This document shows, one piece after another, positions 4,154 through 53,179 of a stretch of DNA of 64,000 bases. This DNA comes from an uncultured Planctomycetia bacterium (GTDB lineage: Bacteria > Omnitrophota > Gorgyraeia > Duberdicusellales > Duberdicusellaceae): positions 7,128 through 71,127 of the forward strand of contig CAZWJT010000005.1 in the NCBI GenBank assembly GCA_964634935.1. The letters are read 5' to 3'. Under the pieces are notes generated by a model. That model was given only the letters and a program-made list of their open reading frames with translations, was not told the DNA's origin and searched no databases. Every line of letters begins with the position of its first letter. The first letter of the stretch is position 1. Made by a program: the position numbers and the translations under genes.

Positions 4154-4642
4154 TCATTTTACTGTTTGTAATTCAAAATACAAGTGTTCTGCTGGCAATA
4201 GAAAAGCCCAAAAGCGTTCGTAGCCGCGCGGAAAAAGATTTGCGAGCCGGTGAATACCGTACCGGCGAAAGGCCCGATGGAATGTAATGGATTTTGCTGA
4301 AATCTTAAAACCGCACTGCGGTGCAAGAACATCAAAAGAAAAAATCGAAAAAGCTCGTCTATGGGTTGGGTCTGCATAGGAAAGATAACAAGAAAAATGG
4401 GGCACCTGAATGATAATCTTTGCTCCGGCCTTAGAAATCCTGTGAATTTCTTCAAGGACCGTGGCCACGGAAGCAAGATGCTCAAAGACTTGTTTCGACA
4501 CTACGCTATCAAAGGTATTCTCCTGAAAAGGATAAAATTTCCGGTTCAGATCACAAATTATGTCTGCCTGAGAGGCACGGTTCAGGTCAATACCCAAAGC
4601 GCCTTTTGTTTTACTGTTTCCGCAACCAAGATCAAGAATCAT
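4154..4642 (-). CDS. Class I SAM-dependent methyltransferase (short form)
   Basis: 162 aa. MILDLGCGNSKTKG is motif I (LDLGCG), and FDSVVSKQVFEHL resembles Methyltransf_11. Confidence 0.65.
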   Translation of the reverse strand: MILDLGCGNSKTKGALGIDLNRASQADIICDLNRKFYPFQENTFDSVVSKQVFEHLASVATVLEEIHRISKAGAKIIIQVPHFSCYLSYADPTHRRAFSIFSFDVLAPQCGFKISAKSITFHRAFRRYGIHRLANLFPRGYERFWAFLLPAEHLYFELQTVK

Positions 4643-4663
4643 ATCATCACTCCTGTTTTCCTG

Positions 4664-5791
4664 CTATCGCTGTCCCATTAAACCATATGTACGCAAGGTC
4701 CGGCACGCTGCATGAGTAAAATCATGCGACGACTCATGAGCAGACCATTCAGTGAGCTTCCGTAACCCTTCAGGAAGCGGAACCCGCGGTGCAAAACCAA
4801 GCTTCTGAGTAATCTTGCCGATATCAGCACAACAGTGCCGGATATCCCCCACACGAAATTCCCTCAGTATGCGGGGCGTGAAATTCTTTTGATAGAGTTG
4901 AATTATTCTTTCCGCGACATCCCGGATTGTCTGAGCTCTCCCTGTTCCCACATTCAGTGTTTCATAGTCCGCGGTTGACTTCTCCATTGCCAAGATGTTC
5001 GCGGTAACGATATCGCTAACGTAAATAAAATCGCGGGTTTGAAGTCCATCTTCAAAAATACATGGTTGCTTGCCAGCTTTTATCTGTGTTAAGAAAAGTG
5101 CAGTAACGCCGGTATAAGGGTTGCGAAGTGATTGTCGAGGACCGTAGATATTAAAATAACGCAACGCAACCGTGGGAATGCGGTAGGCCCGACCAACCGT
5201 CAGACAAAGCTGTTCCTGAAAAAGCTTTGTAATCGCATAGACGGATGTTGGGGCAGGCATTTTTTCTTCTTGGGTCGCAACAGGATCAAGTGTACGCCTG
5301 CAAGAAGGACAAAAAACCTCCCATTGGTTTTTGGCAAGCTGACGAAGGGAACGCACGGGAGGAGCTACAATGCCACAGTGCAAACACCGATAAGCTCCTT
5401 CTCCGTACACTGACATACTTGAAGCAACGATGAGTTTTCTGATTCTTTTGGAAGTACGCAGAAATATGTCGAGCAGAATTCCTGTCCCTGAAGCATTCTG
5501 AGATACATAACGATCGATCTCGTACATAGACTGCCCCACGCCGACCTGAGCAGCTTCATGAAAGACCACTTCGATATCCTGCAAAGATTTTTTTAATTTT
5601 CGCTGATCACGAAGATCCGCAAAAACATATTCAGCATCTTTATTCAAAAACGAGGGTGATTTTCTCCCATGTACCTGGGGCTCAAGCACGTCGTAAACCC
5701 GCACGCGATGGCCATCTTGGACTAAACGATCGACAAGATGCGAACCAACAAACCCGCAGCCACCTGTCACAAGTATTTTCTTTCCAGACAC
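4664..5791 (-). CDS. NAD-dependent epimerase/dehydratase (SDR extended family) with an inserted Cys4 zinc-ribbon-like segment
   Basis: 375 aa. ILVTGGCGFVGSHLV is the Rossmann GxxGxxG. SSMSVYG and YAITK supply the catalytic S and YxxxK. Between them lies CLHCG...(x19)...CPSC. Confidence 0.8.
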   Translation of the reverse strand: MSGKKILVTGGCGFVGSHLVDRLVQDGHRVRVYDVLEPQVHGRKSPSFLNKDAEYVFADLRDQRKLKKSLQDIEVVFHEAAQVGVGQSMYEIDRYVSQNASGTGILLDIFLRTSKRIRKLIVASSMSVYGEGAYRCLHCGIVAPPVRSLRQLAKNQWEVFCPSCRRTLDPVATQEEKMPAPTSVYAITKLFQEQLCLTVGRAYRIPTVALRYFNIYGPRQSLRNPYTGVTALFLTQIKAGKQPCIFEDGLQTRDFIYVSDIVTANILAMEKSTADYETLNVGTGRAQTIRDVAERIIQLYQKNFTPRILREFRVGDIRHCCADIGKITQKLGFAPRVPLPEGLRKLTEWSAHESSHDFTHAACRTLRTYGLMGQR

Positions 5792-5803
5792 TGGGAGTAA
5801 AAC

Positions 5804-6373
5804 TTACTGGAATCGGTATGAAAATCCTCCAAGGATTGTGTGGGTATTAATGCCGCCGTTACGATCGTCGATGCTGCAATTGGAAAGGTGCCGAAAACGG
5901 TATTCACAGTCAAAATACATACGGTCTTTAATCTTAAAAGACAAGCCTGCTCCGGCGGAATCAACAAAATTAAACTGAGTCCCCTGTTCATAGGTATGAA
6001 GGGTCATATAGGAAGGACCGGCGCCAAATTTGATATACGGAACCAGTTGCTCACTAAGTGGGAAACCGTACTTAAGAAGCAGATTGATGCCCGTCTCAAG
6101 GTTTTTCTCTGGTTCAAGTGCCGGGCTCAAAAAAGGCTCTACCTGAAATTCAAGAATTCCTTCGGTATGAATCCCGATTTTTTCTGCCAAAGGTTTTGCA
6201 TCGAAGCCAAAACTTACCATGAATGGAATTACCTCATAGTCATCCTGAGTTTTCAAATCTCCGGTCATATACCCGGAAAGGACGCCAACACTTGAAAGAC
6301 CTTCAGCGAACAGGTCGCCCGCTGCGCTGAAAAGAATTACTGCACACCACAAAAAAACAGATACTTGCTTCAT
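5804..6373 (-). CDS. PagL-like outer-membrane acyloxyacyl hydrolase (lipid A deacylase family)
   Basis: 189 aa. It has a signal peptide (MKQVSVFLWCAVILFSAAGDLFA). The C-terminal RFRHLSNCSIDDRNGGINTHTILGGFSYRF resembles the HxSN catalytic motif and C-terminal beta-strand of PagL. Confidence 0.55.
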   Translation of the reverse strand: MKQVSVFLWCAVILFSAAGDLFAEGLSSVGVLSGYMTGDLKTQDDYEVIPFMVSFGFDAKPLAEKIGIHTEGILEFQVEPFLSPALEPEKNLETGINLLLKYGFPLSEQLVPYIKFGAGPSYMTLHTYEQGTQFNFVDSAGAGLSFKIKDRMYFDCEYRFRHLSNCSIDDRNGGINTHTILGGFSYRFQ

Positions 6374-6471
6374 CTTTTTCTCCTTTTTTCAGAATAACTA
6401 CCTACTCAGAGAAAATTATACCAAAAAAATCACATTGCACAATACATATCAAAAACCAGAAAAAAGCAAAA

Positions 6472-7242
6472 TCAGCGTTCACTGCGTCGAGCAGCAGCCA
6501 GAAGACTGCGCGTATATTCTTCTTGAGGATGAGATAGAACTCCCGGAGTATTCCCTTTTTCAACAACCACCCCATCTTTCATAACCACAAGAGAATCACA
6601 CAAACAGCGCACAAGCCCAATATTATGCGAGATAAAAATAAGTGCGACACCAGAATCCGCATGGAGCCGGCTGAACATTTCAATGATTTTCTTGCTCACT
6701 AACACATCTAGGTGCGCAGTCGGTTCATCACAAATCAGCACACAAGGCTTTACCGATAATGCCCGGCCAATAGCAACACGCTGAGCTTGGCCACCACTCA
6801 ATTCATGAGGAAAGCGTTCCAATATGTCTTTTGAAAGCTCAACAACATCGAGTAACTGGTGGACCTCGCAAGAGGCTGCTTGAAAGGACATACCTTGACA
6901 ATAAAGGAATGGCTCAGCCAACAGATCCCGTATTCTCATTCTCGGATTAAGACTCAGATAGGGATTTTGGAAAACAATCTGGATATTTTTTCTTATCTCA
7001 GCAAGCGGCACACTAAAAACAACGCTACCGTTTGTAGGCTTCATAAGAACTGCGAGTATCCTCGCAAGGGTCGATTTTCCTGACCCGCTCTCGCCGACAA
7101 TCCCTATTGTTTCTCCAGGAAAAACATTCAAATCGACTCCCGATAAAGCAGTGACCCGCATGCGAACAATGCCTTTCTGAATTTCAAAAACCTTATGAAT
7201 GCCTTGCGCGCAAATCACTGGTTTATTCATAATCGGACACAC
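6472..7242 (-). CDS. ABC transporter ATP-binding protein (oligopeptide/dipeptide OppF/DppF type)
   Basis: Walker A GESGSGKST, signature LSGGQAQRVAIGRAL, Walker B LICDEPTAHLD. Confidence 0.85.
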   Translation of the reverse strand: MCPIMNKPVICAQGIHKVFEIQKGIVRMRVTALSGVDLNVFPGETIGIVGESGSGKSTLARILAVLMKPTNGSVVFSVPLAEIRKNIQIVFQNPYLSLNPRMRIRDLLAEPFLYCQGMSFQAASCEVHQLLDVVELSKDILERFPHELSGGQAQRVAIGRALSVKPCVLICDEPTAHLDVLVSKKIIEMFSRLHADSGVALIFISHNIGLVRCLCDSLVVMKDGVVVEKGNTPGVLSHPQEEYTRSLLAAARRSER

Positions 7243-8045
7243 GCCTCAATAAATTGGTTTGTATAAGCATGGTGCGTAGCGGTAAAAACTTCTTGCGCCG
7301 GGAATGTTTCCAAAATTTTATGACAACAGAGAATTGCCACCCGATTGCTGATATATTCGACAAGGGTCAAATCATGAGTTATGAATAAAATGCTGATATT
7401 TTTTTCGCGGTTTAATTTCTTCAAAATCTTCATGATTTCCATCTCGGTCGTTACATCCAAATGCGCAGTCGGCTCGTCCGCAATAAGTAACTTCGGCGAA
7501 AGGGCAAGAGCCTGAGCAATCATTACCCGCTGAGCTTGGCCGCCACTCAACTGATGAGGATAGCTATAAAATATCCTCTCAGGATCGTCGAAAGCCATCT
7601 CAGTAAACAGTTTTAATGTCGCAGATTTCGCTTCCGTCGAGGAATAAATACGGTGGAATAGAAAAACTTCGCTTATCTGATATCCAACACGAATCAAAGG
7701 ATTCAAGCTCGCCTGAGGCTGTTGGAATATATATCCTATTTGACGCCCCCGCATACGCTGAGCTTCTCTCGGCGCTGTCAACTCGTAGCTGACTCCTTGA
7801 TCGTAAAAAGTGATCGACCCAGAAATTCTAGCATTTCTTGACAGAAGACCGCAGATACTCAAAGTAGTCACTGTCTTCCCTGAGCCGCTTTCTCCGGCAA
7901 GAGAAAAAACCTCTCCTTTCTGGAGATCAAAATTTATCCCTTCGACAATCGGAACTGCTTTCTTATCGGCAATAAATTCAATGGTCAAATTCCGGACAGA
8001 AAGAAGTATATCCGTTTTGTTAGACACTTTCTCGCACTCCTTCAC
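7227..8045 (-). CDS. ABC transporter ATP-binding protein (OppD/DppD type)
   Basis: GESGSGKT, LSGGQAQRVMIAQAL, LIADEPTAHLD. The ORF-track N-terminus (8046..8177) is hydrophobic junk that overlaps the upstream permease. The preferred start is the GTG at 8045..8043 (VKECEKV...), which leaves a 26-nt overlap with the permease stop at 8020. Confidence 0.8.
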   Translation of the reverse strand: MKECEKVSNKTDILLSVRNLTIEFIADKKAVPIVEGINFDLQKGEVFSLAGESGSGKTVTTLSICGLLSRNARISGSITFYDQGVSYELTAPREAQRMRGRQIGYIFQQPQASLNPLIRVGYQISEVFLFHRIYSSTEAKSATLKLFTEMAFDDPERIFYSYPHQLSGGQAQRVMIAQALALSPKLLIADEPTAHLDVTTEMEIMKILKKLNREKNISILFITHDLTLVEYISNRVAILCCHKILETFPAQEVFTATHHAYTNQFIEACVRL

Positions 8046-42884: not shown

Positions 42885-43556
42885 ATGGAAAGAACGCTCC
42901 GTCAGACACATAGAATTGAAGAAGCATTTTTTAAGAAAGAAAAGTCTGAGCGTACACTAAAAACCCCGTTAAAAAAGAAAAAGGTATTCTTCTCTATTCT
43001 CCTCAGTTCCCTGCTTGTTTCTGGGGTAATTATCACAGCGATCATCACCCTTGGAAAGTTTGACTTCTTGATCTTGGTTACGCCAAAACAAAAAATCGGA
43101 TCTTCTCTTTCAGAAAACATTCTCACGAAAAACATATCTGTCGCTACGCAAAACCGAAAGTCGTATGCCAATCTTTTTGACAAAGGAACCCTGAACATCG
43201 TTTCTTCAAAATCCAGACCTGCGGTAGTGACCCTTGATTTTCCTGAACCGCTGAATGCAAAAGGCAGAACACTTACCCTGCAAACACAACAACTTCCGGT
43301 CAACACGTCCTTTGCCATCTTCTTCCGCGACAGCTTCCATTACTCCAACGCGCTTGCGCCTGTTTTCGTGACCGTGAATAAAGAAAACCCGCTACCCGCT
43401 CCTCTTCTGTCAATTCCTTTACCGGAAGAATCTAACCCGCAGATCGATTGGACAAAGATAAACCAGATCAGGATTAAGGTAATCCCTCTTTCCCAGGTAG
43501 ATACCCTTGTTGTAATCAAACATATGTCCCTTGAAAAAAAGGAGGCCAAGTTATGA
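42885..43556 (+). CDS. Membrane-anchored hypothetical protein: basic N-terminal tail, single TM helix, and a C-terminal extracytoplasmic domain of unknown fold. Candidate partner of the downstream ParA-type ATPase.
   Basis: 223 aa. Residues 1-35 are Lys/Arg-rich (FFKKEKSERTLKTPLKKKK), followed by the TM helix FFSILLSSLLVSGVIITAIITL. The stop overlaps the next gene start in an ATGA motif (43553..43556). Confidence 0.6.
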   Translation: MERTLRQTHRIEEAFFKKEKSERTLKTPLKKKKVFFSILLSSLLVSGVIITAIITLGKFDFLILVTPKQKIGSSLSENILTKNISVATQNRKSYANLFDKGTLNIVSSKSRPAVVTLDFPEPLNAKGRTLTLQTQQLPVNTSFAIFFRDSFHYSNALAPVFVTVNKENPLPAPLLSIPLPEESNPQIDWTKINQIRIKVIPLSQVDTLVVIKHMSLEKKEAKL

Positions 43557-44581
43557 AAGTGGTGTCGGTCACCAATCAAAAAGGAGGGTGCGGAAAAACG
43601 ATTACTGCGGTGAATTTTGCCGCTGCGCTCGCCCGAAAAGGGATAAAAGTTCTCCTGATAGACCTTGATCCGCAAGCCCACGCCACATACGCTTTAGGCT
43701 ATAAAGATACAAGCGAAAAGAACATACTCCGGGTTTTTGACTGCATTATCCAAAATGGATCATGGGACCTAAAAGAATTCCTGTGGGAAAAAAGCGCAAA
43801 TTTATCTTTTCTTGCCTCAACCATGGAATTAAGCGCCTTGGAACAAGAACTTAAAGATAGCCAATACTCTCTTGAAATCCTTAACAAGCTCATCGATCAA
43901 GCTGAACCTATGGGATTTGAATACATCGTCGTTGACTGTCCGCCAAGTCTTGGCTTTCTCACCCTTAACGCCCTAAAATCCTGTGATACAGTGCTGGTGC
44001 CTCTTGACACAAGCTTATTTTCACTCGTAGGCCTTGACAGTTTATTGAGAGTCGCTTCGCTCACGCAGCACTACAGTGACCGTTTGCCCAACTTCTATTA
44101 CCTGGTCACTATTTTTGACAAACGCTCTAATTTTGCAAAACGATTCATGGAGACAGTGAACGAACAATTTTCGGATAAACTCTTAACAACCATTATCCGC
44201 AACAATGTTCATCTGCGCGAATCGGCTTTACTTGGCAAAACCATTTTTGAACATGATGCAGCTTCAAACGGCGCAAAAGATTATGCAAGCCTGGTTGACG
44301 AGATACTCGCAAAAGATAGAGCAAAACGAACAGTAGAGTTTCGCTGTGAAGCCCCTCAAGCGCAAAAAGTGTATATTACCGGAGACTTCAATAACTGGCG
44401 GAAAGAAGAAAAATTCTCGCTTGTTCCGTCCGATGGAATCTGGAGAAAAAAAGTTTCCCTGCCTCGCGGTGCATATAACTATAAGTTTATCATCGACGAC
44501 ACGTGGACGCACGACAAAGCAAATCCCCAACTACAAGACGACAGTTACGGAGGGTTGAACTCAATTATCACGATTCAGTAA
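43553..44581 (+). CDS. ParA/MinD-family P-loop ATPase fused to a C-terminal AMPK-beta-type glycogen-binding domain (CBM48)
   Basis: The deviant Walker A is VTNQKGGCGKTITAVN. Residues ~265-342 (VEFRCEAPQAQKVYITGDFNNWRKEE...YNYKFIIDDTWTHDKANP...GGLNSIITIQ) align closely with the AMPK beta-subunit glycogen-binding domain. A GGAGG RBS lies 8 nt upstream of the start. Confidence 0.85.
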   Translation: MKVVSVTNQKGGCGKTITAVNFAAALARKGIKVLLIDLDPQAHATYALGYKDTSEKNILRVFDCIIQNGSWDLKEFLWEKSANLSFLASTMELSALEQELKDSQYSLEILNKLIDQAEPMGFEYIVVDCPPSLGFLTLNALKSCDTVLVPLDTSLFSLVGLDSLLRVASLTQHYSDRLPNFYYLVTIFDKRSNFAKRFMETVNEQFSDKLLTTIIRNNVHLRESALLGKTIFEHDAASNGAKDYASLVDEILAKDRAKRTVEFRCEAPQAQKVYITGDFNNWRKEEKFSLVPSDGIWRKKVSLPRGAYNYKFIIDDTWTHDKANPQLQDDSYGGLNSIITIQ

Positions 44582-44591
44582 AGAGACGCCC

Positions 44592-46532
44592 TTAGATTCC
44601 GGAAAGGGCTTCTGAAGAAAGAAAAGAAATAATTTCTTGTTCTTTAGCGCAGGCTGCAGCGTATCCGCGTTCGATATACTCATCGATCTTAGAAAAATCC
44701 GTCCACTGTAAATCCGCAAGCAACGGATGGATAATCACGTCAGAAAATGAAGCTGCTTCTTCAACAAACACCCGTTGCATCGTTTCGATACTCCCAAAAA
44801 TAAAGTCAAAGATATTGAAAGCATGAGAAAGCCGTCCGTTTTTATACGCATCAAGGATTTCTTCCCGGGAAGGAGTTACATTAACACCAATAATTCGATT
44901 TACCCGTTCACGGGAAAGTATTTGCGTGGGCAGTGGGTTTAGGATGCCTCCATCAAGTAAAAGCTCCTGTTGCCGTTTTACTGGCATGAAAATTCCGGGA
45001 AACGCGCAACTTCCTAAAACCGCTTCCCAGACATACCCTTTCTCAAGAACATAGGAAGATCTCCGCTTAAAATTAAAGACAACAATACGGAGCGGCATGC
45101 GCAAATCAGAAAACTTTTTATTTCCGAAAAGCTTCCGCATGATTGCGTGAAGCGTAGACCCGCGAAAGAATGAAATCAGAGAAAAATTAATATCAAAAAA
45201 AGAAAAAAGCGAAATTTTCCGGAAAAGACCAACTTTCTCTTTGATCGTTTCCCAAGTATCCCCCATCGCCCATAAGGCGGCGATTACCGAACCCATACTC
45301 GATCCGGAAACGATATCAACCGGAATATCTAACTCTGAAAAACGCTTTATTACCCCAATGTGCGACAACCCATATGCCGATCCACTCCCGAAAGCAATCC
45401 CGGTACGCACATTTCCAATTGCCCGGGAAATATTTCGGACTGTTGATCCATAGATCAATCCCGGTCCCGTTTGTGTTTTTTCCTGAAGATCTTTCTTGCT
45501 CGTAAGACCTTCAATAAAGGCGAGTTTTGCGTAAATCGCCTGGCTATAAGGAATGATCTGGGAGGGAAATTTCTTACTGAGCAACAAAAGACGCACCTTG
45601 TCTTCAGTAAAGCTGTAGGCACGCATAAAGCGCTGAACAATACCGTGATAGCGGCGCAGAAACCCAAGCTCACCACGCAAAAGAAGGTGGATTGCATCTG
45701 AATGATAGATGAAATTCGCGATTGCCTTATCTTCGCTGGAACACAAATCAACAATCACATAGTTATAAACCGTACCTAAAAAGTTTAACAGCTCGAACGC
45801 GCGCTTCTCTTCGTCAATCCGGGAAACATGGTATCTGACCGCCAGATGATGAAACCCAAGGTCCTGAAAAATAAAATCGAGGATTGTCTCTTCCGAGAAT
45901 TGATAGAGTTCAAGAAATTTCTCAAACTGCAACCCTTCGCGCCGCAAAGAAAACATATCATCCAGGCGCACCTCAAGCAACATGACTTTTCTGCCGGTTT
46001 GGACTGCCAGGTGTTTCGCCAGCATCCAGGCATAAGTAGTTTTCCCGATAGTGATAAAAGGACTGTAAACGGCAATCAGCGAACTTTCGAAAATGTTCTT
46101 TCCTTTCCCTTGCCGCCTCTTGATCCTGCGCGAAAGAGTTTGAGAAAGCTCAAGCACAAGCGAAGGCTGCTGTTCAGCAAACTTCAGAAATTTTTCTTTG
46201 GGAATACGTAAAATCCAGCAATCGCTCGCTGCTTCCGCGGTAACTGAATGAAGATCGTCGGTAAGAAGCGAAATGATCCCGAAGCAAGTACCCCGAAAAA
46301 GATATTCTAAAATCTTCCCCTGTTTTGATGATTCCGCGGTATACGTCACAACTCGACCTTGAACAACAACATAGAAGAAATCTGCGGGAGAATCTTCCCG
46401 GTAGATAACCGCCTGCTTCTTGTATTCAATGAGTTCGGCTAAAAACGCAAGCTCTGCCAGAGACTCCCTTGATAAAGACGCAAAGAGAAAAATCCGCTGA
46501 ATAATTTGTTTTTTATCAATCCGCATGTTCAA
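44592..46532 (-). CDS. Multidomain protein: N-terminal cyclic-nucleotide-binding domain, a central degenerate MinD/ParA-like domain, and a C-terminal patatin-like phospholipase
   Basis: 646 aa. The cNMP-binding region is FFYVVVQGRVV...RGTCFGIISLL. The central segment IAVYSPFITIGKTTYAWMLAKHLAVQTGRKVMLLEV...VIVDL resembles a CpaE/MinD domain with a non-canonical P-loop. The patatin motifs are GIAFGSGSAYGLSHIG (Gly-rich), GSSMGS (GxSxG) and LLDGG (DGA/G). Confidence 0.8.
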   Translation of the reverse strand: MNMRIDKKQIIQRIFLFASLSRESLAELAFLAELIEYKKQAVIYREDSPADFFYVVVQGRVVTYTAESSKQGKILEYLFRGTCFGIISLLTDDLHSVTAEAASDCWILRIPKEKFLKFAEQQPSLVLELSQTLSRRIKRRQGKGKNIFESSLIAVYSPFITIGKTTYAWMLAKHLAVQTGRKVMLLEVRLDDMFSLRREGLQFEKFLELYQFSEETILDFIFQDLGFHHLAVRYHVSRIDEEKRAFELLNFLGTVYNYVIVDLCSSEDKAIANFIYHSDAIHLLLRGELGFLRRYHGIVQRFMRAYSFTEDKVRLLLLSKKFPSQIIPYSQAIYAKLAFIEGLTSKKDLQEKTQTGPGLIYGSTVRNISRAIGNVRTGIAFGSGSAYGLSHIGVIKRFSELDIPVDIVSGSSMGSVIAALWAMGDTWETIKEKVGLFRKISLFSFFDINFSLISFFRGSTLHAIMRKLFGNKKFSDLRMPLRIVVFNFKRRSSYVLEKGYVWEAVLGSCAFPGIFMPVKRQQELLLDGGILNPLPTQILSRERVNRIIGVNVTPSREEILDAYKNGRLSHAFNIFDFIFGSIETMQRVFVEEAASFSDVIIHPLLADLQWTDFSKIDEYIERGYAAACAKEQEIISFLSSEALSGI

Positions 46533-47739
46533 GAATCAATTTTTTATACAGGAACGCGAAGGGCTTGATAACTCTCTTGCCGCTCGCCTGAACCTGCACG
46601 AGCCCAAAAAAAGCGCCGTAGCCTTTATCCCATTCGTAATTATCGAGAAGTGACCACCAAAAATATCCGCAAACAGGAATTTTGTTCTTGAGGGAAAAAA
46701 CCACATCCAGATGTTCTCGTAAAAAATCCTCATAATCTTTTTCACAAAGCGCAGTAGTACCATTTTCGGTAATCATACACGGCAAGCGATAGCCGCACAA
46801 ACCAAGAAGAATGGTTTTTAGTCCTTGGGGGTAGATCTTCCAGCCCAAAGAATTCGTTTTTTCCTTATGCACCGGGCATCCACATTCTCCCTGAAAAGAA
46901 AACGGCCAGAATGTCCGCAGATAAAAAACACGATAGTAGTTGATACCAATAAAATCAAGAGTTTTTTTCTTTACCAAATACCAGATCAGCATTTGATTAA
47001 AAATTTGGTTGCGCAAAAAACAGGCAAGATTATTCTGTCCGAAGTTAAAACGCGAACAAGGCTTAAACACCACCCAATGCTGGGCGATGCTCACCAGTGG
47101 ATTGAGCAATGTGCCATCCCGGGAAGATACAGACGACGCCTGATGCACGATCCGATAAGCTTGTTTATGAGCTTTAACCAAATGACCCAGAGCCCGCAGC
47201 ATACAGAAAATTGAACGTTTTCCAGGAGGCCAAATCCCCAGCAGATACCCGTTGTAGAGATAAACAAGCGGCTCATTCAAAGTAATCCAGAATCTTACAT
47301 ATTGGGAATACTCAGAAAAAACTTTTTCGGTATAACGCTGAAAGTAGTGAACAGAATTCGGACTCTCCCATCCTCCTTCTTGAGCAAGCCATGCAGGAAT
47401 TGTAAAATGAAACAAAGTGACCACTGGCTCTATCGAACGTTTCCGAAGCGCAGAGAAAACACGGTGGTAATGCTGAACCGCCTCGGCGTCCCATGTGCCT
47501 TTTTCCGGTTCGATTCTCGACCATTCCAGCGAAAATCTGTGCGCAGTATGTCCTAAGGAAACAGCGATATCAAAATCTTCCTCAAACCTTTCGTAGTGAT
47601 TACACGCAAAACCAGCAGGCGGAACCTTTGCCTGAAGTTCCCATAAAAACCAATCGTTATTCCGGTTATTTCCTTCGACTTGATGGCTCGAGGTAGCCGA
47701 TCCCCAGAGAAAATTCTCAGGGATATACTGAGAGGTCAT
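46516..47739 (-). CDS. Glycoside hydrolase family 1 beta-glucosidase
   Basis: 407 aa. NFLWGSATSSHQVEG, TLNEP (acid/base) and ITENG (nucleophile) are present. Confidence 0.85.
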   Translation of the reverse strand: MTSQYIPENFLWGSATSSHQVEGNNRNNDWFLWELQAKVPPAGFACNHYERFEEDFDIAVSLGHTAHRFSLEWSRIEPEKGTWDAEAVQHYHRVFSALRKRSIEPVVTLFHFTIPAWLAQEGGWESPNSVHYFQRYTEKVFSEYSQYVRFWITLNEPLVYLYNGYLLGIWPPGKRSIFCMLRALGHLVKAHKQAYRIVHQASSVSSRDGTLLNPLVSIAQHWVVFKPCSRFNFGQNNLACFLRNQIFNQMLIWYLVKKKTLDFIGINYYRVFYLRTFWPFSFQGECGCPVHKEKTNSLGWKIYPQGLKTILLGLCGYRLPCMITENGTTALCEKDYEDFLREHLDVVFSLKNKIPVCGYFWWSLLDNYEWDKGYGAFFGLVQVQASGKRVIKPFAFLYKKLILEHAD

Positions 47740-48266
47740 GGAGAGGATAAAACAGATTTTATAAAAAACTCGACGCCCGCGGAAGCAATCTTGTCATCAT
47801 CGGCGCCTTTCGTACCGCTTACGCCAATAGCACCAAAAATTTTATCTTGGGCAACCAGAGGGAAACCCCCGGAAGCTCCAACAATAATCGTTTTCCCAAA
47901 AAGATCTAAAATCTGAAAAGTTCCTTTCGCGGTCGGCTGTCGAAACTCCAAGGCGCCGAGTGCTTTCGCTAAAGACCATTGATACGATAAAAATTCTTGC
48001 CCATCCATAACAAAAACAACCCGAATATCCCCCCGGCTATCCACCACGACAACCGCCACCTTCTGCCCAAGTTCTTCAGCTTTGCGCAAACAAGCTCTTG
48101 CGATGTTTTCAGCGGCCCCAAAGGAAAGCACATAATTCTGCAAAGGCTCACCAGTTATTTCGCTTTTTCTCGGATTCTTATCCTCAGAGGCAGCAAAAGC
48201 TACTGCAGAGAAAAAGACGCAAACCACGCAAATCACCCGCTGGAAAAACCGCTTCATCCTATCCAT
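47736..48266 (-). CDS. Secreted GlcG/HbpS-like protein (DUF336 family)
   Basis: Signal peptide, then VAVVVVDSRGD...GAIGVSG, typical of DUF336/heme-binding HbpS-like proteins. Confidence 0.6.
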   Translation of the reverse strand: MDRMKRFFQRVICVVCVFFSAVAFAASEDKNPRKSEITGEPLQNYVLSFGAAENIARACLRKAEELGQKVAVVVVDSRGDIRVVFVMDGQEFLSYQWSLAKALGALEFRQPTAKGTFQILDLFGKTIIVGASGGFPLVAQDKIFGAIGVSGTKGADDDKIASAGVEFFIKSVLSSP

Positions 48267-48268
48267 AC

Positions 48269-48559
48269 CTACCCCTCCAAAAACCGTTTTGCCTCTCCCC
48301 GTTTATATTCCGAGAGAAAATCTTCAAAATCAATAAAAATAATCTGATCTTTATAGCCTTCAACGGGACGAATTTGCTGTTTTCTGCGGAAGGCGATATA
48401 CTTAAAATTCGTCTTGCATTCGGGACAACTCAATACATCCCTTTTCAATCCAACCGCGCGGCAATTAAAACACTCAGCGCTTAAATCCCCCATCACCAAA
48501 AGATACGGCTTTATCGCTTCAGTATCGAACTGCTTCCAAACACGAACCCATGAACTCAT
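48269..48559 (-). CDS. Small zinc-ribbon protein, hypothetical
   Basis: 96 aa with CFNC...(x13)...CPEC. It sits in an operon between the LOG and DUF336 genes. Confidence 0.4.
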   Translation of the reverse strand: MSSWVRVWKQFDTEAIKPYLLVMGDLSAECFNCRAVGLKRDVLSCPECKTNFKYIAFRRKQQIRPVEGYKDQIIFIDFEDFLSEYKRGEAKRFLEG

Positions 48560-49215
48560 TTTTTCTTGCGGTAAAATTTCTTGATAATCTGCAGTACTTC
48601 CTTGGCCTCATCCACAACATGGAACAGGGATAGATCGTCTGAAGCGATAGCCCCGAACTTACAGCATGTATCCCGAAGCCAGCCAACCAGATTTTTCCAG
48701 TAAGAAGTTCCGACAAGAACTATGGGAAAGGCGTGAACCCGCTGAGTCTGAACCAAGGCAAGTCCTTCAAAAAACTCATCAAGCGTTCCAATGCCTCCGG
48801 GAAAGATAATGAATGCTTTCGAATATTTGGTAAACATGACTTTCCGCACAAAAAAATACTTGAATTCCAACAAATAGGTTACATAAGGATTGGGAACCTG
48901 CTGGTGAGGAAGAACGATATTCAACCCCACAGTCTCTCCTCCTCCCTCTTTCGCTCCTTTATTTGCCGCCTCCATGATTCCCTTGCCCGCGCCGGTAATA
49001 ATCGTAAAACGATTTTTGGCAAGTAATTGCGCGGTTTCACTGGCAAGCGAGTAATAAAAAGTTCCTGGCTTGGTTGCTTTTGAACCAAAAATGGCAACTC
49101 CGTCCTTAATCGTTGAAAGATTCTCAAAACCTTCTACAAATTCACTCATAATCCGGAATACCCGCCAGATATCCTGACGGTTGGCGGTAAGTTCAAAAGT
49201 AAGCGGCTTACGCAT
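48556..49215 (-). CDS. LOG-family protein (cytokinin riboside 5'-monophosphate phosphoribohydrolase / TIGR00730-type nucleotide hydrolase)
   Basis: GAGKGIMEAANKGA and PGGIGTLDEF (the PGGxGTxxE motif) are present. Confidence 0.75.
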   Translation of the reverse strand: MRKPLTFELTANRQDIWRVFRIMSEFVEGFENLSTIKDGVAIFGSKATKPGTFYYSLASETAQLLAKNRFTIITGAGKGIMEAANKGAKEGGGETVGLNIVLPHQQVPNPYVTYLLEFKYFFVRKVMFTKYSKAFIIFPGGIGTLDEFFEGLALVQTQRVHAFPIVLVGTSYWKNLVGWLRDTCCKFGAIASDDLSLFHVVDEAKEVLQIIKKFYRKKK

Positions 49216-49228
49216 CGTTCTGATAATG

Positions 49229-49669
49229 TTATCTTTTCACTCGATACAGTTTATCCTTACGCCTGACCCTTTGACGCACCAGAATCCCCACTTCATCCCC
49301 CTGAGAGACCCGGATAACCGGCTCATGGTTAACCTGCATGGAGGTAATCTTTTGCTCAAAATCACTCGTATACCCTTTAAAGTGAACTAAGTCTCCGTTC
49401 TGTAATGATGATCGGGAAATCTTTACCGCAGCAACATGAATTTTAGGAAAATAATGGGTTACGCGCCCTGTAAGCTCTTCGGAGGAAAGATTCTTTTTTA
49501 CCTGAAGTTTTTTCCTTTTGAAACGAACAGCGGAAACTTTGGGAAGGGATTTTTTCTTCGTGGCTATTTTGTGCGCAGAAACCTTGCGAAGTTTCTTGAG
49601 AGCTTTTCTTCTACGCGGCAAAGAAGCTTTCCCTCTTTTCTTCTTCTTAAAAAGAAACCCAAATATCAT
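49229..49669 (-). CDS. Hypothetical protein with an extremely Lys/Arg-rich N-terminal half and a C-terminal small beta-rich domain
   Basis: 146 aa. Residues 5-60 are about 50% K/R (KKKKRGKASLPRRRKALKKLRK...). The C-terminal GRVTHYFPKIHVAAVKI...GDEVGILV looks like a beta-barrel of the translation-protein type. There were no database hits by memory. Confidence 0.45.
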   Translation of the reverse strand: MIFGFLFKKKKRGKASLPRRRKALKKLRKVSAHKIATKKKSLPKVSAVRFKRKKLQVKKNLSSEELTGRVTHYFPKIHVAAVKISRSSLQNGDLVHFKGYTSDFEQKITSMQVNHEPVIRVSQGDEVGILVRQRVRRKDKLYRVKR

Positions 49670-50080: not shown

Positions 50081-53000
50081 CTACCAGGATTTAAAATCCG
50101 CTGGATCAAGAATCCGCCAAGTGCTGCGCGAGGCTCCGGAAATATCTCCGGGGGGAAGACGTAGATCATTCGGATCAGCAAAACTTGTATTATAGGAAAA
50201 ATTCCAGATACCCACTGAAGTATTATAATAATACCCGTATCCGCGTTCATATCCATACCGATAGTCACCTGGAACAGTAGCCTTCTCGCTGGGAGCAAGT
50301 TGAACAAATGCCCCTCCGATGCGCCTTGTCTTTGTCCCCTCGTTTGCATCAGAAGTATCGCCATCCCTATTTAAATCAGTCGCATACCAACGCTCAAGCA
50401 CATACCCCTGTGGGTCATACGGAGAAACGATCGCGGTATTATACGTAGAGGGAATGCTAGCGTATCCAGGTAACGCTGCATTGGTAAAGCTTGAAGAATA
50501 TCCTGAAGTTCCCGGAATATTCCAGAAATCAGCAGGATCAGAAAAAACCGCGTTTTTCTTCGTAGCATAAGGATTGGAGCCTCCGTTCAAATCCTGATGC
50601 CAATAGGTTGTAAGTACTCGTAAATCATCTAAGAAAGTGGCGCGCTCATTTGCCGTGGGAGGATTTGTGCCAGAAGGGTCCCAATCATACTCTTTTCTTC
50701 CGACAATAACCCCATTTCTTTTCACATAAAGATACCAATGTTTATCGCCAGGCCAAGCGCCACCATGTTGTTGATAGACACAGTCACCGGCAGCTCCGCT
50801 TGTAGCGCCATTTAAAACGAAATTTTGTAACGAACCCGCATCTCCAACATCCAGCAAATCAGCAGTATCACTGTCGTTCAATAAGTGGGCAGGATAATTC
50901 ACCGGCGCAGCCGGCTTATAAGGAAATGTGAGGGAACTGGCGAACGCGGCTTGAAACCCGTTAAACCCCGAAGAAAGCGTGTATACTTTGCGCTTTTCCG
51001 TAATTACCGAAGCCGGAGGAACTTTTGAAGCGCTATCGTTATAATCCGCAGAACCGGGAACTTTCTCATCCCAGGTTGTGGCTCCTGATTTTTTGTATTT
51101 CACAACATTATAATCTCCTGCAAGATAAATATTATGAGGAGTAACAAAAGTCAATCCTTCCCGGGGAAGTTTCTGCCCATTTTTCAAAACAACAGCAAAA
51201 TCACGCTCTAGATGTTCCGGCTTCAGGCTCTCAATATACACAACTCCATTAAAATTCGGTATCGCCCCACTATTGATCTTGGTAACCAAAGCTGCGACGT
51301 CGATTTCCAGGGTCTTTGTTTTACACACCCCTTTACTTGCGTCGCAATCCGCGCCAGCGCCAGTAACCGGATAAACCGGGTTCCAAAATGACGCTTCCGT
51401 AGTTACATCGCTTATTGGGTTAATGTCTCCTCCTGGATCAAACTTGACATATATGCCATTTGTCTGGGCTTCTGATTTCAACGTTGTATTTAAAGGCGGA
51501 GGGTCGATTTTCTCAGGACATCCTGAATTGTGCTCAAAAATATTCACCGGGGAAAGATCATCATCAACTCCGTCCGCTAAATCTTTCCAATCCCGCCATT
51601 CGGTCGCCTGCTCGTAAGTATTGAGAAATTTTACTAAATCGTATTCTTGGCCTGCCGTATCGCTTGTACCTGAAAAGTTATCCTGATCTCCGGTAACCCG
51701 GTCATGCCCGTATTTTAAATCATCCCACCATTCTTTATTGATGAAAGTTGGCCGAGCCGCGACCCAGTCAGCGTCAGTCCAGACTCTCGTATTGGGATTC
51801 GTCTGATACCCAGCCGTTAAATCACTTTGATAAATGCTTGCCCAATATCTTCTGTGTTTTAGTTTCCAATAATCAGCCCAATCAGTTCCCGGAAGCTCTT
51901 CGCTGTTTCCACCATAGATATCCCCTACGGTTCTTGCTCCCTTGTCGGAAATATCAACGTTCATCCGGACAAATTCTGTCTCCGGAACCACAAACCTGAT
52001 TGTGTTTTCTGGAGTTGGCAGGACGGCTCTATCGGTGCCGGAATACTTATCCCATGTCCAAGTTCTCTCAAGATAATACGGCAAACCAAGACCAGCCTGC
52101 AGAGCAGGATAGGCCGAGGCTGTTTGTTGCCATTTCGGTAAATTGGAAGGGGTAGCGGTATATGTTCCAGTTGTATTATAGTTAAAGTGAAAGAAAACAT
52201 TGTGAGTGATATAAGAATATGAAGGAGAAAAAGTAATTTGGTCATCCGTCAGATATAAGGGAGCTTTTCCATCTCTGCTATTGTTAGCCCAGCCATAATT
52301 TGAATTATCGTCTGCTGAATAAGGAGCAGTCATCTGATAATTCCACAATTTGATATATCCATTGGTACTCAGTTCTTTTAAATCCTTAAAGAGAGTATTG
52401 AGCCTTAAGGTGATGCCTTTCTGGAGATTTACATCAGCCTGTTCAACATTGACATGAATACTACCAAAACCGCCGCCGTCGTAAATAGTACTTGATTCAT
52501 CTGAAAAAGTCCTTGGTCCCGGATAAAACTGGAAAAATTCATAGAGCGAGCGTTTGATAACCCTCTGTTCAGCTGCCTTCTGAATATTGCCTATTTGGGC
52601 AAATACCCGGATAACCATCGCCTTAGAATCCTCCCAATTGGTAGGAGCGGTAAAAGGGTATAGTTCTTGGAAAGTTATGACCTTTAGCGTCGAGTTTGCC
52701 GGAAGATTCTGCAAGGTATAGTAGTAATCAGTGCCCGGGCCTTCGTTCACATAGGTATAATCGCCGGTAAGATGAATCTGCGGACGCCCAACATTCGCAC
52801 CAGCTGTATACGGACTCTGAATCGCAGGATGTCCGCTGTCATTCGGAAGAATCTGGGGATTATTAGGATTGGATATATCGATATAGTGCGTACACCACTG
52901 CCACTTCGTTGTGCTGGCCAACTCCCGGTATGCCGCCCATAAACCCCTGTTTATTAACGCATCGATTGCGGTTTCCTCAGTATCCCGCTGCGTGGTTCTT

Positions 53001-53179
53001 AAGCCTGAGGTGATGACGCTGTAGAGGGTGACCCCTCCAATCAGAAGAACCAGGACAACAAAAAAGACGACGACGATGACAACGCTTTTCTTTGATTTTT
53101 CTCTACCGCGGGGTTTTGCATGATCCTGCCTATCCATAGCAACCATATAAGTATATCTTTTTTTCATGGAAGAATTCAA
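50081..53179 (-). CDS. Large (1032 aa) secreted/surface protein with an N-terminal membrane anchor, encoded directly downstream of two pseudopilin genes (candidate pilus-associated adhesin)
   Basis: A basic N-terminus is followed by a hydrophobic helix (SVVIVVVFFVVLVLLIGGVTL). The remainder is rich in W, Y, N, G, T and D (beta-rich). No recognisable catalytic motif was found. The start is 1 nt after the stop of the upstream pilin gene. Confidence 0.6.
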   Translation of the reverse strand: MNSSMKKRYTYMVAMDRQDHAKPRGREKSKKSVVIVVVFFVVLVLLIGGVTLYSVITSGLRTTQRDTEETAIDALINRGLWAAYRELASTTKWQWCTHYIDISNPNNPQILPNDSGHPAIQSPYTAGANVGRPQIHLTGDYTYVNEGPGTDYYYTLQNLPANSTLKVITFQELYPFTAPTNWEDSKAMVIRVFAQIGNIQKAAEQRVIKRSLYEFFQFYPGPRTFSDESSTIYDGGGFGSIHVNVEQADVNLQKGITLRLNTLFKDLKELSTNGYIKLWNYQMTAPYSADDNSNYGWANNSRDGKAPLYLTDDQITFSPSYSYITHNVFFHFNYNTTGTYTATPSNLPKWQQTASAYPALQAGLGLPYYLERTWTWDKYSGTDRAVLPTPENTIRFVVPETEFVRMNVDISDKGARTVGDIYGGNSEELPGTDWADYWKLKHRRYWASIYQSDLTAGYQTNPNTRVWTDADWVAARPTFINKEWWDDLKYGHDRVTGDQDNFSGTSDTAGQEYDLVKFLNTYEQATEWRDWKDLADGVDDDLSPVNIFEHNSGCPEKIDPPPLNTTLKSEAQTNGIYVKFDPGGDINPISDVTTEASFWNPVYPVTGAGADCDASKGVCKTKTLEIDVAALVTKINSGAIPNFNGVVYIESLKPEHLERDFAVVLKNGQKLPREGLTFVTPHNIYLAGDYNVVKYKKSGATTWDEKVPGSADYNDSASKVPPASVITEKRKVYTLSSGFNGFQAAFASSLTFPYKPAAPVNYPAHLLNDSDTADLLDVGDAGSLQNFVLNGATSGAAGDCVYQQHGGAWPGDKHWYLYVKRNGVIVGRKEYDWDPSGTNPPTANERATFLDDLRVLTTYWHQDLNGGSNPYATKKNAVFSDPADFWNIPGTSGYSSSFTNAALPGYASIPSTYNTAIVSPYDPQGYVLERWYATDLNRDGDTSDANEGTKTRRIGGAFVQLAPSEKATVPGDYRYGYERGYGYYYNTSVGIWNFSYNTSFADPNDLRLPPGDISGASRSTWRILDPADFKSW

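Follow-up and report, generated by a model that had tools for sequence, protein, structure and literature searches.

A probable Omnitrophota branch of the neuropathy-target-esterase-like lipases with a degenerate ParA/MinD-like middle domain and a GH1 operon partner

The gene at 44592..46532 on the minus strand of the 64,000-nucleotide stretch analyzed here (contig CAZWJT010000005.1, positions 7,128 to 71,127; hereafter the window) encodes a single chain in which a cyclic nucleotide-binding (CNB) domain, a ParA-like domain and a patatin-type esterase follow one another, and this raises the question of what kind of lipase the protein is, what controls it and with which partner it works. In a preliminary description, made from the letters alone, it had been read as a second-messenger-gated phospholipase set apart by its middle domain and placed, by coincidence or through a shared interaction surface, beside a genuine ParA-type gene. 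The evidence gathered since, largely from comparative sequence analysis, supports with good but not complete confidence the view that the family is a divergent bacterial branch of the neuropathy target esterase (NTE)-like lipases in which the P-loop-like domain is less decayed. What appears new is a phylum-wide Omnitrophota variant of these lipases, whose middle domain can be recognized as ParA/CpaE-type, whose CNB pocket is non-canonical yet invariant, and whose gene nearly always shares an operon with one for a GH1 glycosidase.

The open reading frame (ORF) and the motifs quoted for it were all found as described, including IAVYSPFITIGKTT, YNYVIVDL, GSSMGS and LLLDGG. From the listed TTG at 46532 the product has 646 residues; the ATG at 46526, two codons inside, is the likelier start. 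It gives 644 residues and an 11-nucleotide overlap with the upstream stop, and it agrees with the ATG starts of homologs. In Pfam, cNMP_binding covers residues 35-121 (E 5.6e-21) and Patatin residues 380-539 (E 1.7e-27), while the region between them reaches only a sub-threshold match to AAA_31 (E 0.0097). An AlphaFold 2 model of the full-length protein has a mean predicted local distance difference test score (pLDDT) of 86.3 and a predicted template-modelling score (pTM) of 0.81, and that of the middle domain alone reaches 88.2 and 0.88, respectively; together with the profiles, these models bear out the three-domain architecture. No solved structure in the PDB holds the three domains in this arrangement, matches being confined to single domains. 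No transmembrane segment was found in the target or in its GH1 partner, and the best NCBIfam match of the target is RssA, at 95 bits and thus well short of the 272-bit cut-off.

The patatin-like esterase, with a C-terminal extension, occupies residues 373-640 (44613..45416, minus strand, as are all features of the target). Residue conservation was scored across 84 species-level family members, and in all 84 both the nucleophile Ser412 in GSSMG (codon 45297-45299) and the catalytic Asp527 in DGG (codon 44952-44954) are invariant, so that the dyad singled out earlier for checking is intact. As all catalytic residues are present, the domain is predicted to be catalytically competent. Its glycine-rich loop reads GSGSAYG; at the basic position of the GGxRG loop, where Arg or Lys would be expected, every member carries Tyr or Phe. 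The closest solved patatin structure is PlpD (E 4e-21; TM-score 0.83), and CapV and CapE are also structural neighbors. PlpD and RssA thus share the patatin domain with the target; PlpD, however, is a type Vd autotransporter with a POTRA domain and a beta-barrel, and both differ from the family in the Tyr or Phe that stands for the loop Arg.

The middle domain, residues 146-372 (45417..46097), is a real ParA/MinD homolog of the CpaE/TadZ-like kind, although a degenerate one. A profile of the middle region built from 27 family members finds 3ea0, a 'ParA family ATPase', in the PDB at E 3.8e-11, followed by Soj, MinD and other ParA proteins, and individual members match AAA_31 (20/27) and CbiA (12/27) in Pfam. 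Foldseek searches with the model of the domain retrieve 3ea0, Borrelia PF-32, Soj, FleN, MinD and BcsQ with probability 1.0 and TM-scores of 0.6-0.7. The degenerate MinD/CpaE/ParA-like fold proposed in the preliminary description is therefore supported both by profile and by structure, and the absence of P-loop NTPase similarity, which would have told against it, was not what the comparison returned. At its C-terminal end the domain runs into the patatin domain through a conserved YAKAIRRIAR-type helix.

The middle domain had also been presented as an intervening feature that sets the protein apart from NTE-like lipases, and this did not survive comparison. The nearest matches outside the family are proteins composed of cNMP_binding, NTE_Ploop and Patatin, in which PF24179, the 'Neuropathy Target Esterase family P-loop like domain', is located at the same position, between CNB and patatin. 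The order CNB, P-loop-like, patatin is thus an already recognized and catalogued NTE-family architecture. The analogy with NTE-like lipases was itself well founded: full-length hhalign against bacterial NTE-like proteins gives a probability of 100% and E 1.1e-69 over 581 collinear columns, which take in strand 1 and helix 1 as well as the Walker-B element and, just before the patatin glycine-rich loop, the RRIAR/RRLSGR helix. These bacterial proteins, relatives of eukaryotic NTE/PNPLA6/SWS, have in common with the target the domain order, the Ser-Asp dyad and that RRIAR or RRLSGR helix. They differ in several respects, since the middle domain of the target family is matched by AAA_31 and CbiA rather than NTE_Ploop and usually retains GK[ST], the target has one CNB domain instead of two or three and no transmembrane anchor, its cassette carries Ile for Glu and His for Arg, and the tight operon with GH1 was not seen on their side, the two canonical NTE-like genes examined having no GH1 neighbor. 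No literature on this Omnitrophota lipase family was found.

Several observations weigh against placing the middle domain itself with NTE_Ploop. In Pfam, PF24179 was matched neither by the window protein nor by any of the 27 members. When hhalign was restricted to the domain, the relation to NTE_Ploop was weak (48-51% probability, P ~1.5e-4, 49-50 columns), the aligned part extending over the helix, the Walker-B strand and the 'QSD-hhhh' strand after it, and with an enlarged NTE_Ploop alignment the probability still did not exceed ~51%. The homology of the two middle domains would therefore rest mainly on collinearity. The NTE_Ploop profile, run against the PDB, gave nothing significant, with FleN and Wzc at E 0.6-0.9.

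How far the middle domain has moved from a working ATPase is seen in its nucleotide-binding motifs. The degenerate Walker A, residues 157-166 (S-P-F-I-T-I-G-K-T-T; 46035..46064), aligns as SPFITIGKT with NQKGGVGKT of Soj, so that G163-K164-T165 correspond to the canonical P-loop Lys and Thr and GKT is retained, while the KGG signature is gone. Across the family, the position of the ParA signature Lys is Lys in just 3/84 members and the two loop Gly positions are Gly in at most 7/84, whereas GK[ST] is present in 83/84. The earlier statement that Walker A lacks its conserved Gly and Lys thus holds for the Lys of the ParA signature and for its two Gly, but not for the classical P-loop Lys, which is K164. 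The Walker-B-like strand, residues 258-263 (Y-V-I-V-D-L; 45744..45761), carries D at position 262 in 74/84 members and E in the other 10/84. At the end of strand 2 (beta2), the first switch-I acidic residue is acidic in 79/84, and the second switch-I Asp is absent. Because the ParA-specific signature has been lost, a ParA-type ATP-sandwich dimer formed by the target is unlikely.

It could nevertheless be argued that the middle domain is a working switch, binding ATP or GTP through GK[ST] and Walker B and making the protein a dual-input lipase that answers to a ligand and a nucleotide at once. Such a switch would fit the near-universal GK[ST], the acidic Walker B in 84/84 members, the mostly acidic end of beta2, the well-formed P-loop modelled at high pLDDT, and the fact that the nearest relatives are active-looking CpaE-type ATPases. 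It is, however, difficult to reconcile with a second and more diverse metagenomic set of 59 members, 15 of which have R, N, S or D in place of the P-loop Lys, including 8/18 of the clade to which the window belongs and P0001, the closest homolog (GRT). The replacements seen in this set are GRT, GNT, NS[RK], RSL, DRV, GRA, FSS and DDT, whereas the set shows no variation at all in the catalytic dyad or the CNB cassette. Moreover, the signature Lys has been lost together with the two loop glycines and the second switch-I Asp, and one relative, P0269, has no P-loop whatsoever. Because the P-loop Lys has been lost repeatedly, nucleotide hydrolysis seems not to be essential to the core function of the family, and the dual-input switch appears rather unlikely. 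Against a domain that serves purely as a scaffold stands the good conservation of GK[ST], the acidic Walker B and the acidic beta2 end in the two larger clades, where nucleotide binding may matter; the window protein, which has the classical Lys, may bind a nucleotide as well.

The sensor domain at the N-terminus presents a different kind of divergence. Residues ~5-140 (46113..46520) adopt a CNB fold according to both Pfam and Foldseek, the latter matching the CNB domains of PKA-R, CRP, DNR and MlotiK1. The preliminary description took it to be gated by cAMP or cGMP, and a closer alignment, which it had itself named as decisive, showed the phosphate-binding cassette to depart from the conserved pattern, so that this gating is not supported. 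The canonical cassette, FGE[LI]AL...R[ST]A, supplies a Glu for the ribose 2'-OH and an Arg for the cyclic phosphate. In the target, the corresponding residues 84-99 read F-G-I-I-S-L-L-T-D-D-L-H-S-V-T-A (46236..46283); position 86, the ribose-binding Glu site, is I, M or V and never Glu in the 84 members, and the phosphate-binding Arg is replaced by His in all of them. Both substitutions are displayed in the alignment to PfPKA-R. By comparison, canonical bacterial NTE-like and CNB-ParA proteins retain GE...R[STAN]A, and P0063, an NTE_Ploop protein with the Glu in place, also has a His at the Arg position.

Despite this departure, no part of the protein is more strongly conserved than the cassette, whose mean column entropy is 0.55 bits against 1.5 for the whole domain, and G85, I87, S88, H95, S96 and V97 are invariant. 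Because the Glu and Arg that hold cAMP or cGMP are missing, the CNB domain probably does not bind either in the canonical way, and the strongly selected pocket probably accommodates some other ligand. Against this, a contact between His95 and a phosphate is conceivable. The sensor is joined to strand 1 of the ParA-like domain by a conserved linker that continues from the CNB C-helix, residues 141-150 (K-x-I-F-E-S; 46083..46112), in which K145 and F148 are invariant and which may act as a relay or hinge.

A CNB fold attached to a patatin lipase also calls to mind anti-phage defense, in which a Pycsar- or CBASS-type effector, activated by a cyclic nucleotide, destroys the membrane and aborts infection. 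PADLOC does return weak matches to the CNB domain of Pycsar TIR effectors (2e-7) and to CBASS phospholipases (3e-7), NCBIfam a weak match to CBASS_lipase (2.4e-4), and CapV and CapE are, as mentioned above, neighbors of the patatin fold; all of these scores, however, fall far under the family cut-offs, and the cassette is non-canonical. No cyclase or CD-NTase was found adjacent to the gene in the window or in the loci examined, and the synteny with GH1 is stable and of a housekeeping type across 317 species, unlike mobile defense islands. With no cyclase nearby and such stable synteny, a role in defense is highly improbable and was rejected.

The question of partnership is answered by the opposite side of the gene from the one first suspected. 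The robust neighbor is not the ParA-type gene emphasized in the preliminary description but a GH1 glycosidase of 407 residues (46516..47739, minus strand; Pfam GH1 1.8e-71), overlooked there, which carries the catalytic motifs NEP and TENG and whose stop overlaps the start of the target. A GH1 gene of about 400 codons lies directly upstream and on the same strand in 71/81 loci with upstream sequence, at a spacing of -14 to +11 nucleotides in 60/71, and its conserved motifs are largely kept (nucleophile 60/63; NEP acid/base at least 52/63). At one locus (L048) the junction reads TAAATG, stop then start, and an in-frame fusion of GH1 and target there was ruled out, as the stop codon precedes the ATG. 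The GH1 is thus, judging from gene order, a conserved and near-obligate operon partner, predicted to be translationally coupled to the target.

The pairing recurs in each clade of the family. About 58 full-length homologs have 31-45% identity, and 317 of the species-representative genomes scanned contain relatives; of 80 loci retrieved from them, 59 bear the name Omnitrophota or Omnitrophica, most others carrying generic or PVC labels. Clustering of 84 target proteins on identity by the unweighted pair group method with arithmetic mean separates clade 1 (63 loci, GH1 upstream in most, a lipoprotein of ~150 residues without Pfam match downstream), clade 2 (12 loci, GH1 upstream in 8/12, a DUF3108-like gene downstream) and the window's own clade 3/4 (9 loci, GH1 upstream in 7/8 besides the window, with a ParA-CBM48 gene directly downstream).

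The function proposed from this anatomy and context is that of a cytoplasmic or peripheral-membrane, ligand-regulated lipid acyl hydrolase of an Omnitrophota-wide NTE-like branch that would act jointly with GH1, the substrates being amphipathic glycosides or glycolipids, and it is held here to have about an even chance of being right. In this scheme a small ligand, not canonical cAMP or cGMP, would occupy the CNB pocket, and the resulting conformational change would be relayed through the K-x-I-F-E-S linker and the rigid ParA-derived domain, the latter being a scaffold or dimerization module and not an ATP-sandwich ATPase of the ParA type. The relay would switch the Ser-Asp esterase of the patatin domain on or off, the esterase would strip acyl chains, and the co-translated GH1 would take off the sugar, so that an amphipathic glycoside or glycolipid is dismantled or remodelled.

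The proposed substrate class is suggested by the closest relative of GH1 with a solved structure, 1vff from P. horikoshii (E 1.4e-78 versus 1e-65 for the next match), which we infer to be BGPh. This enzyme is membrane-associated and prefers long-alkyl glucosides, and its relatives hydrolyze steryl glucosides (PMC4687101). BGPh and the window GH1 are both short GH1 enzymes of ~400-420 residues with both catalytic Glu motifs; BGPh is archaeal and hyperthermophilic, unlike the Omnitrophota enzyme. It weighs against the scheme that the glycolipid substrate would be drawn solely from the gene pairing and the properties of this distant archaeal homolog, and that GH1 is absent from 10/81 loci, one of which has GH57 glycogen enzymes instead. 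At that locus (L081, clade 2; 4396..7990), two GH57 genes replace GH1, and one of them is a 1,4-alpha-glucan branching enzyme with a BE_C domain, whose 3' end overlaps the start of the target.

On the other side of the target lies the gene that first drew attention, a bona fide ParA (KGGCGKT) joined to a C-terminal CBM48/AMPK glycogen-binding module (43553..44581, plus strand; Pfam AAA_31 6e-45, AMPK1_CBM 2e-16, CBM_48 1e-6). The two genes are indeed convergent, with stop codons 10 nucleotides apart as originally reported. This adjacency underlies the alternative in which the target is a phospholipase A gated by cAMP or cGMP, its pseudo-ParA domain having an interaction surface in common with the ParA-CBM48 protein, for instance in a heterodimer. 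Its two halves are not without support, since the CNB fold is confirmed, the CNB sites of fly SWS/NTE are needed for catalytic function according to the literature, and ParA-CBM48 is convergent downstream in 11/21 loci of two clades (6/12 in clade 2 and 5/9 in clade 3/4) whose target proteins are only ~37% identical; the GH57 glycogen enzymes upstream of the target at L081 also echo the CBM48 theme. However, the cassette residues that contact cGMP or cAMP are missing from all members, the signature Lys for ParA-type sandwich dimers is missing from the target, and ParA-CBM48 is absent from 63/63 loci of clade 1 and never co-oriented with the target. At the junction no terminator-like hairpin was detected, nor did the two genes turn out to share any terminator or promoter feature. 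In addition, the target and GH1 are both missing from the 6 kb around 21 distant metagenome genes encoding ParA+CBM48 proteins of 29-36% identity, although the reverse search that retrieved them used generic patterns, returned mostly generic ParA and makes these loci weak evidence either way. Taken with the altered cassette, these observations make the cyclic-nucleotide-gated, surface-sharing phospholipase quite improbable.

The adjacency is nevertheless more than chance, since it recurs in two clades, but ParA-CBM48 is missing from clade 1, is never co-oriented with the target and sits in a block that is also present without it. Because ParA-CBM48 keeps partners of its own where the target is lacking, the arrangement is best explained as inherited synteny of a ParA-CBM48 block beside the GH1-lipase operon in some lineages, though the two proteins may also interact physically. 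Upstream of the distant ParA-CBM48 genes lies one for a small membrane protein with a single pass, and their company also includes GH57 and an orf146 homolog; orf146 itself is a window gene (49229..49669, minus strand) whose product has an N-terminus rich in lysine and a C-terminal domain that is conserved. The orf146 homolog lies directly downstream of a distant ParA-CBM48 gene (L091, 7111..7512; 41% identity, E 2e-22), which indicates an old syntenic block that has apparently been rearranged in the window.

Where the unusual combination of domains came from was approached by an exhaustive profile search with the middle domain against 1.84 billion representatives, which returned 50 proteins at a threshold of E<=1e-30, a number that rises to 895 at E<=1e-10. 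Below ~90 proteins of the family type, the next tier (E ~1e-18 to 1e-20), which holds the best matches outside the family, consists of two-domain proteins of ~400 residues that retain KGGVGK[ST]; they join a receiver (REC) to a ParA-like domain, as in CpaE/TadZ, or, in the case of P0241, have a CNB domain in place of the receiver. Two proteins are useful as evolutionary intermediates: P0241 (412 residues) combines cNMP_binding with a ParA-like domain, has a canonical KGGVGKS and a canonical cassette (FGEMAL...RNAT) and lacks patatin, while P0269 (512 residues) joins the ParA-like middle domain to patatin without a CNB domain. The CpaE/TadZ-type proteins and P0241 have in common with the target an N-terminal sensor of ~140 residues followed by a ParA-like domain; unlike the target, they retain the full KGGVGK[ST] and have no patatin.

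The most economical origin would accordingly be a sensor-coupled switch of the ParA type that became joined to patatin. A bolder extension holds the family to be a living intermediate, in which the 'P-loop-like' domain of NTE/PNPLA6 would descend from a CpaE/TadZ-type ParA ATPase, a pre-existing ligand-controlled dimerization switch of the [CNB]-[ParA-like] kind, as in P0241, having been fused to patatin. In Omnitrophota, a non-cNMP ligand and the coupled BGPh-like GH1 would then make of it a two-enzyme module for the turnover of membrane glycolipids, perhaps spatially organized in some lineages by the glycogen-binding ParA-CBM48 protein. As a whole, this scenario is unlikely, and it is put forward as speculation.

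As the architecture itself had been catalogued before, these findings are hypothesis-generating rather than surprising. NTE/PNPLA6 is a human neurodegeneration gene, and the working of its regulatory region and CNB sites is still being established. A recognizable ParA/MinD-like middle domain offers an evolutionary and structural hypothesis for that region, namely a sensor-coupled dimerization switch, and a CNB pocket that is invariant but non-canonical hints that the ligand is neither cAMP nor cGMP. Moreover, the near-obligate pairing with a GH1 of the lipid-glycoside type suggests a substrate class in Omnitrophota, whose lipid biology is little known.

The ParA-CBM48 gene is probably more novel than the target gene and could be part of a ParA-type positioning system for glycogen granules. 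The fusion occurs in the window and in L007, L011, L013, L030, L035, L046, L070, L071, L076 and L087-L103, the distant metagenome loci numbering at least 21, and GH57 alpha-glucan enzymes lie near it in L088 and L091. In the window it is preceded by orf223 (42885..43556, plus strand), a single-pass membrane protein of 223 residues whose stop overlaps the ParA-CBM48 start by 4 nucleotides; orf223 matches no Pfam family and has no detectable similarity to the membrane protein at the same position in L088.

Other neighbors vary with the lineage. The clade-1 lipoprotein, with a signal peptide and a Cys lipobox, directly follows the target in nearly all loci of that clade (for example, L001 10026..10481, L026 4089..4562 and L065 10003..10473), and in clade 2 its position is taken by the DUF3108-like protein of 235 residues (L003 9845..10552). 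In the window, the target is the last of six packed genes on the same strand (44592..49669, minus strand), separated by overlaps of 4-17 nucleotides or gaps of no more than 13, namely orf146, a LOG/SLOG gene (Lysine_decarbox), an ORF of 96 residues, a gene for an HbpS/GlcG-like protein that carries a signal peptide, GH1 and the target; L010, L011 and L013 contain these six genes too. Further upstream on the same strand, an ORF of 1032 residues (50081..53179) combines an N-terminal membrane anchor with a long Gly/Tyr/Trp/Asn-rich region that looks extracellular.

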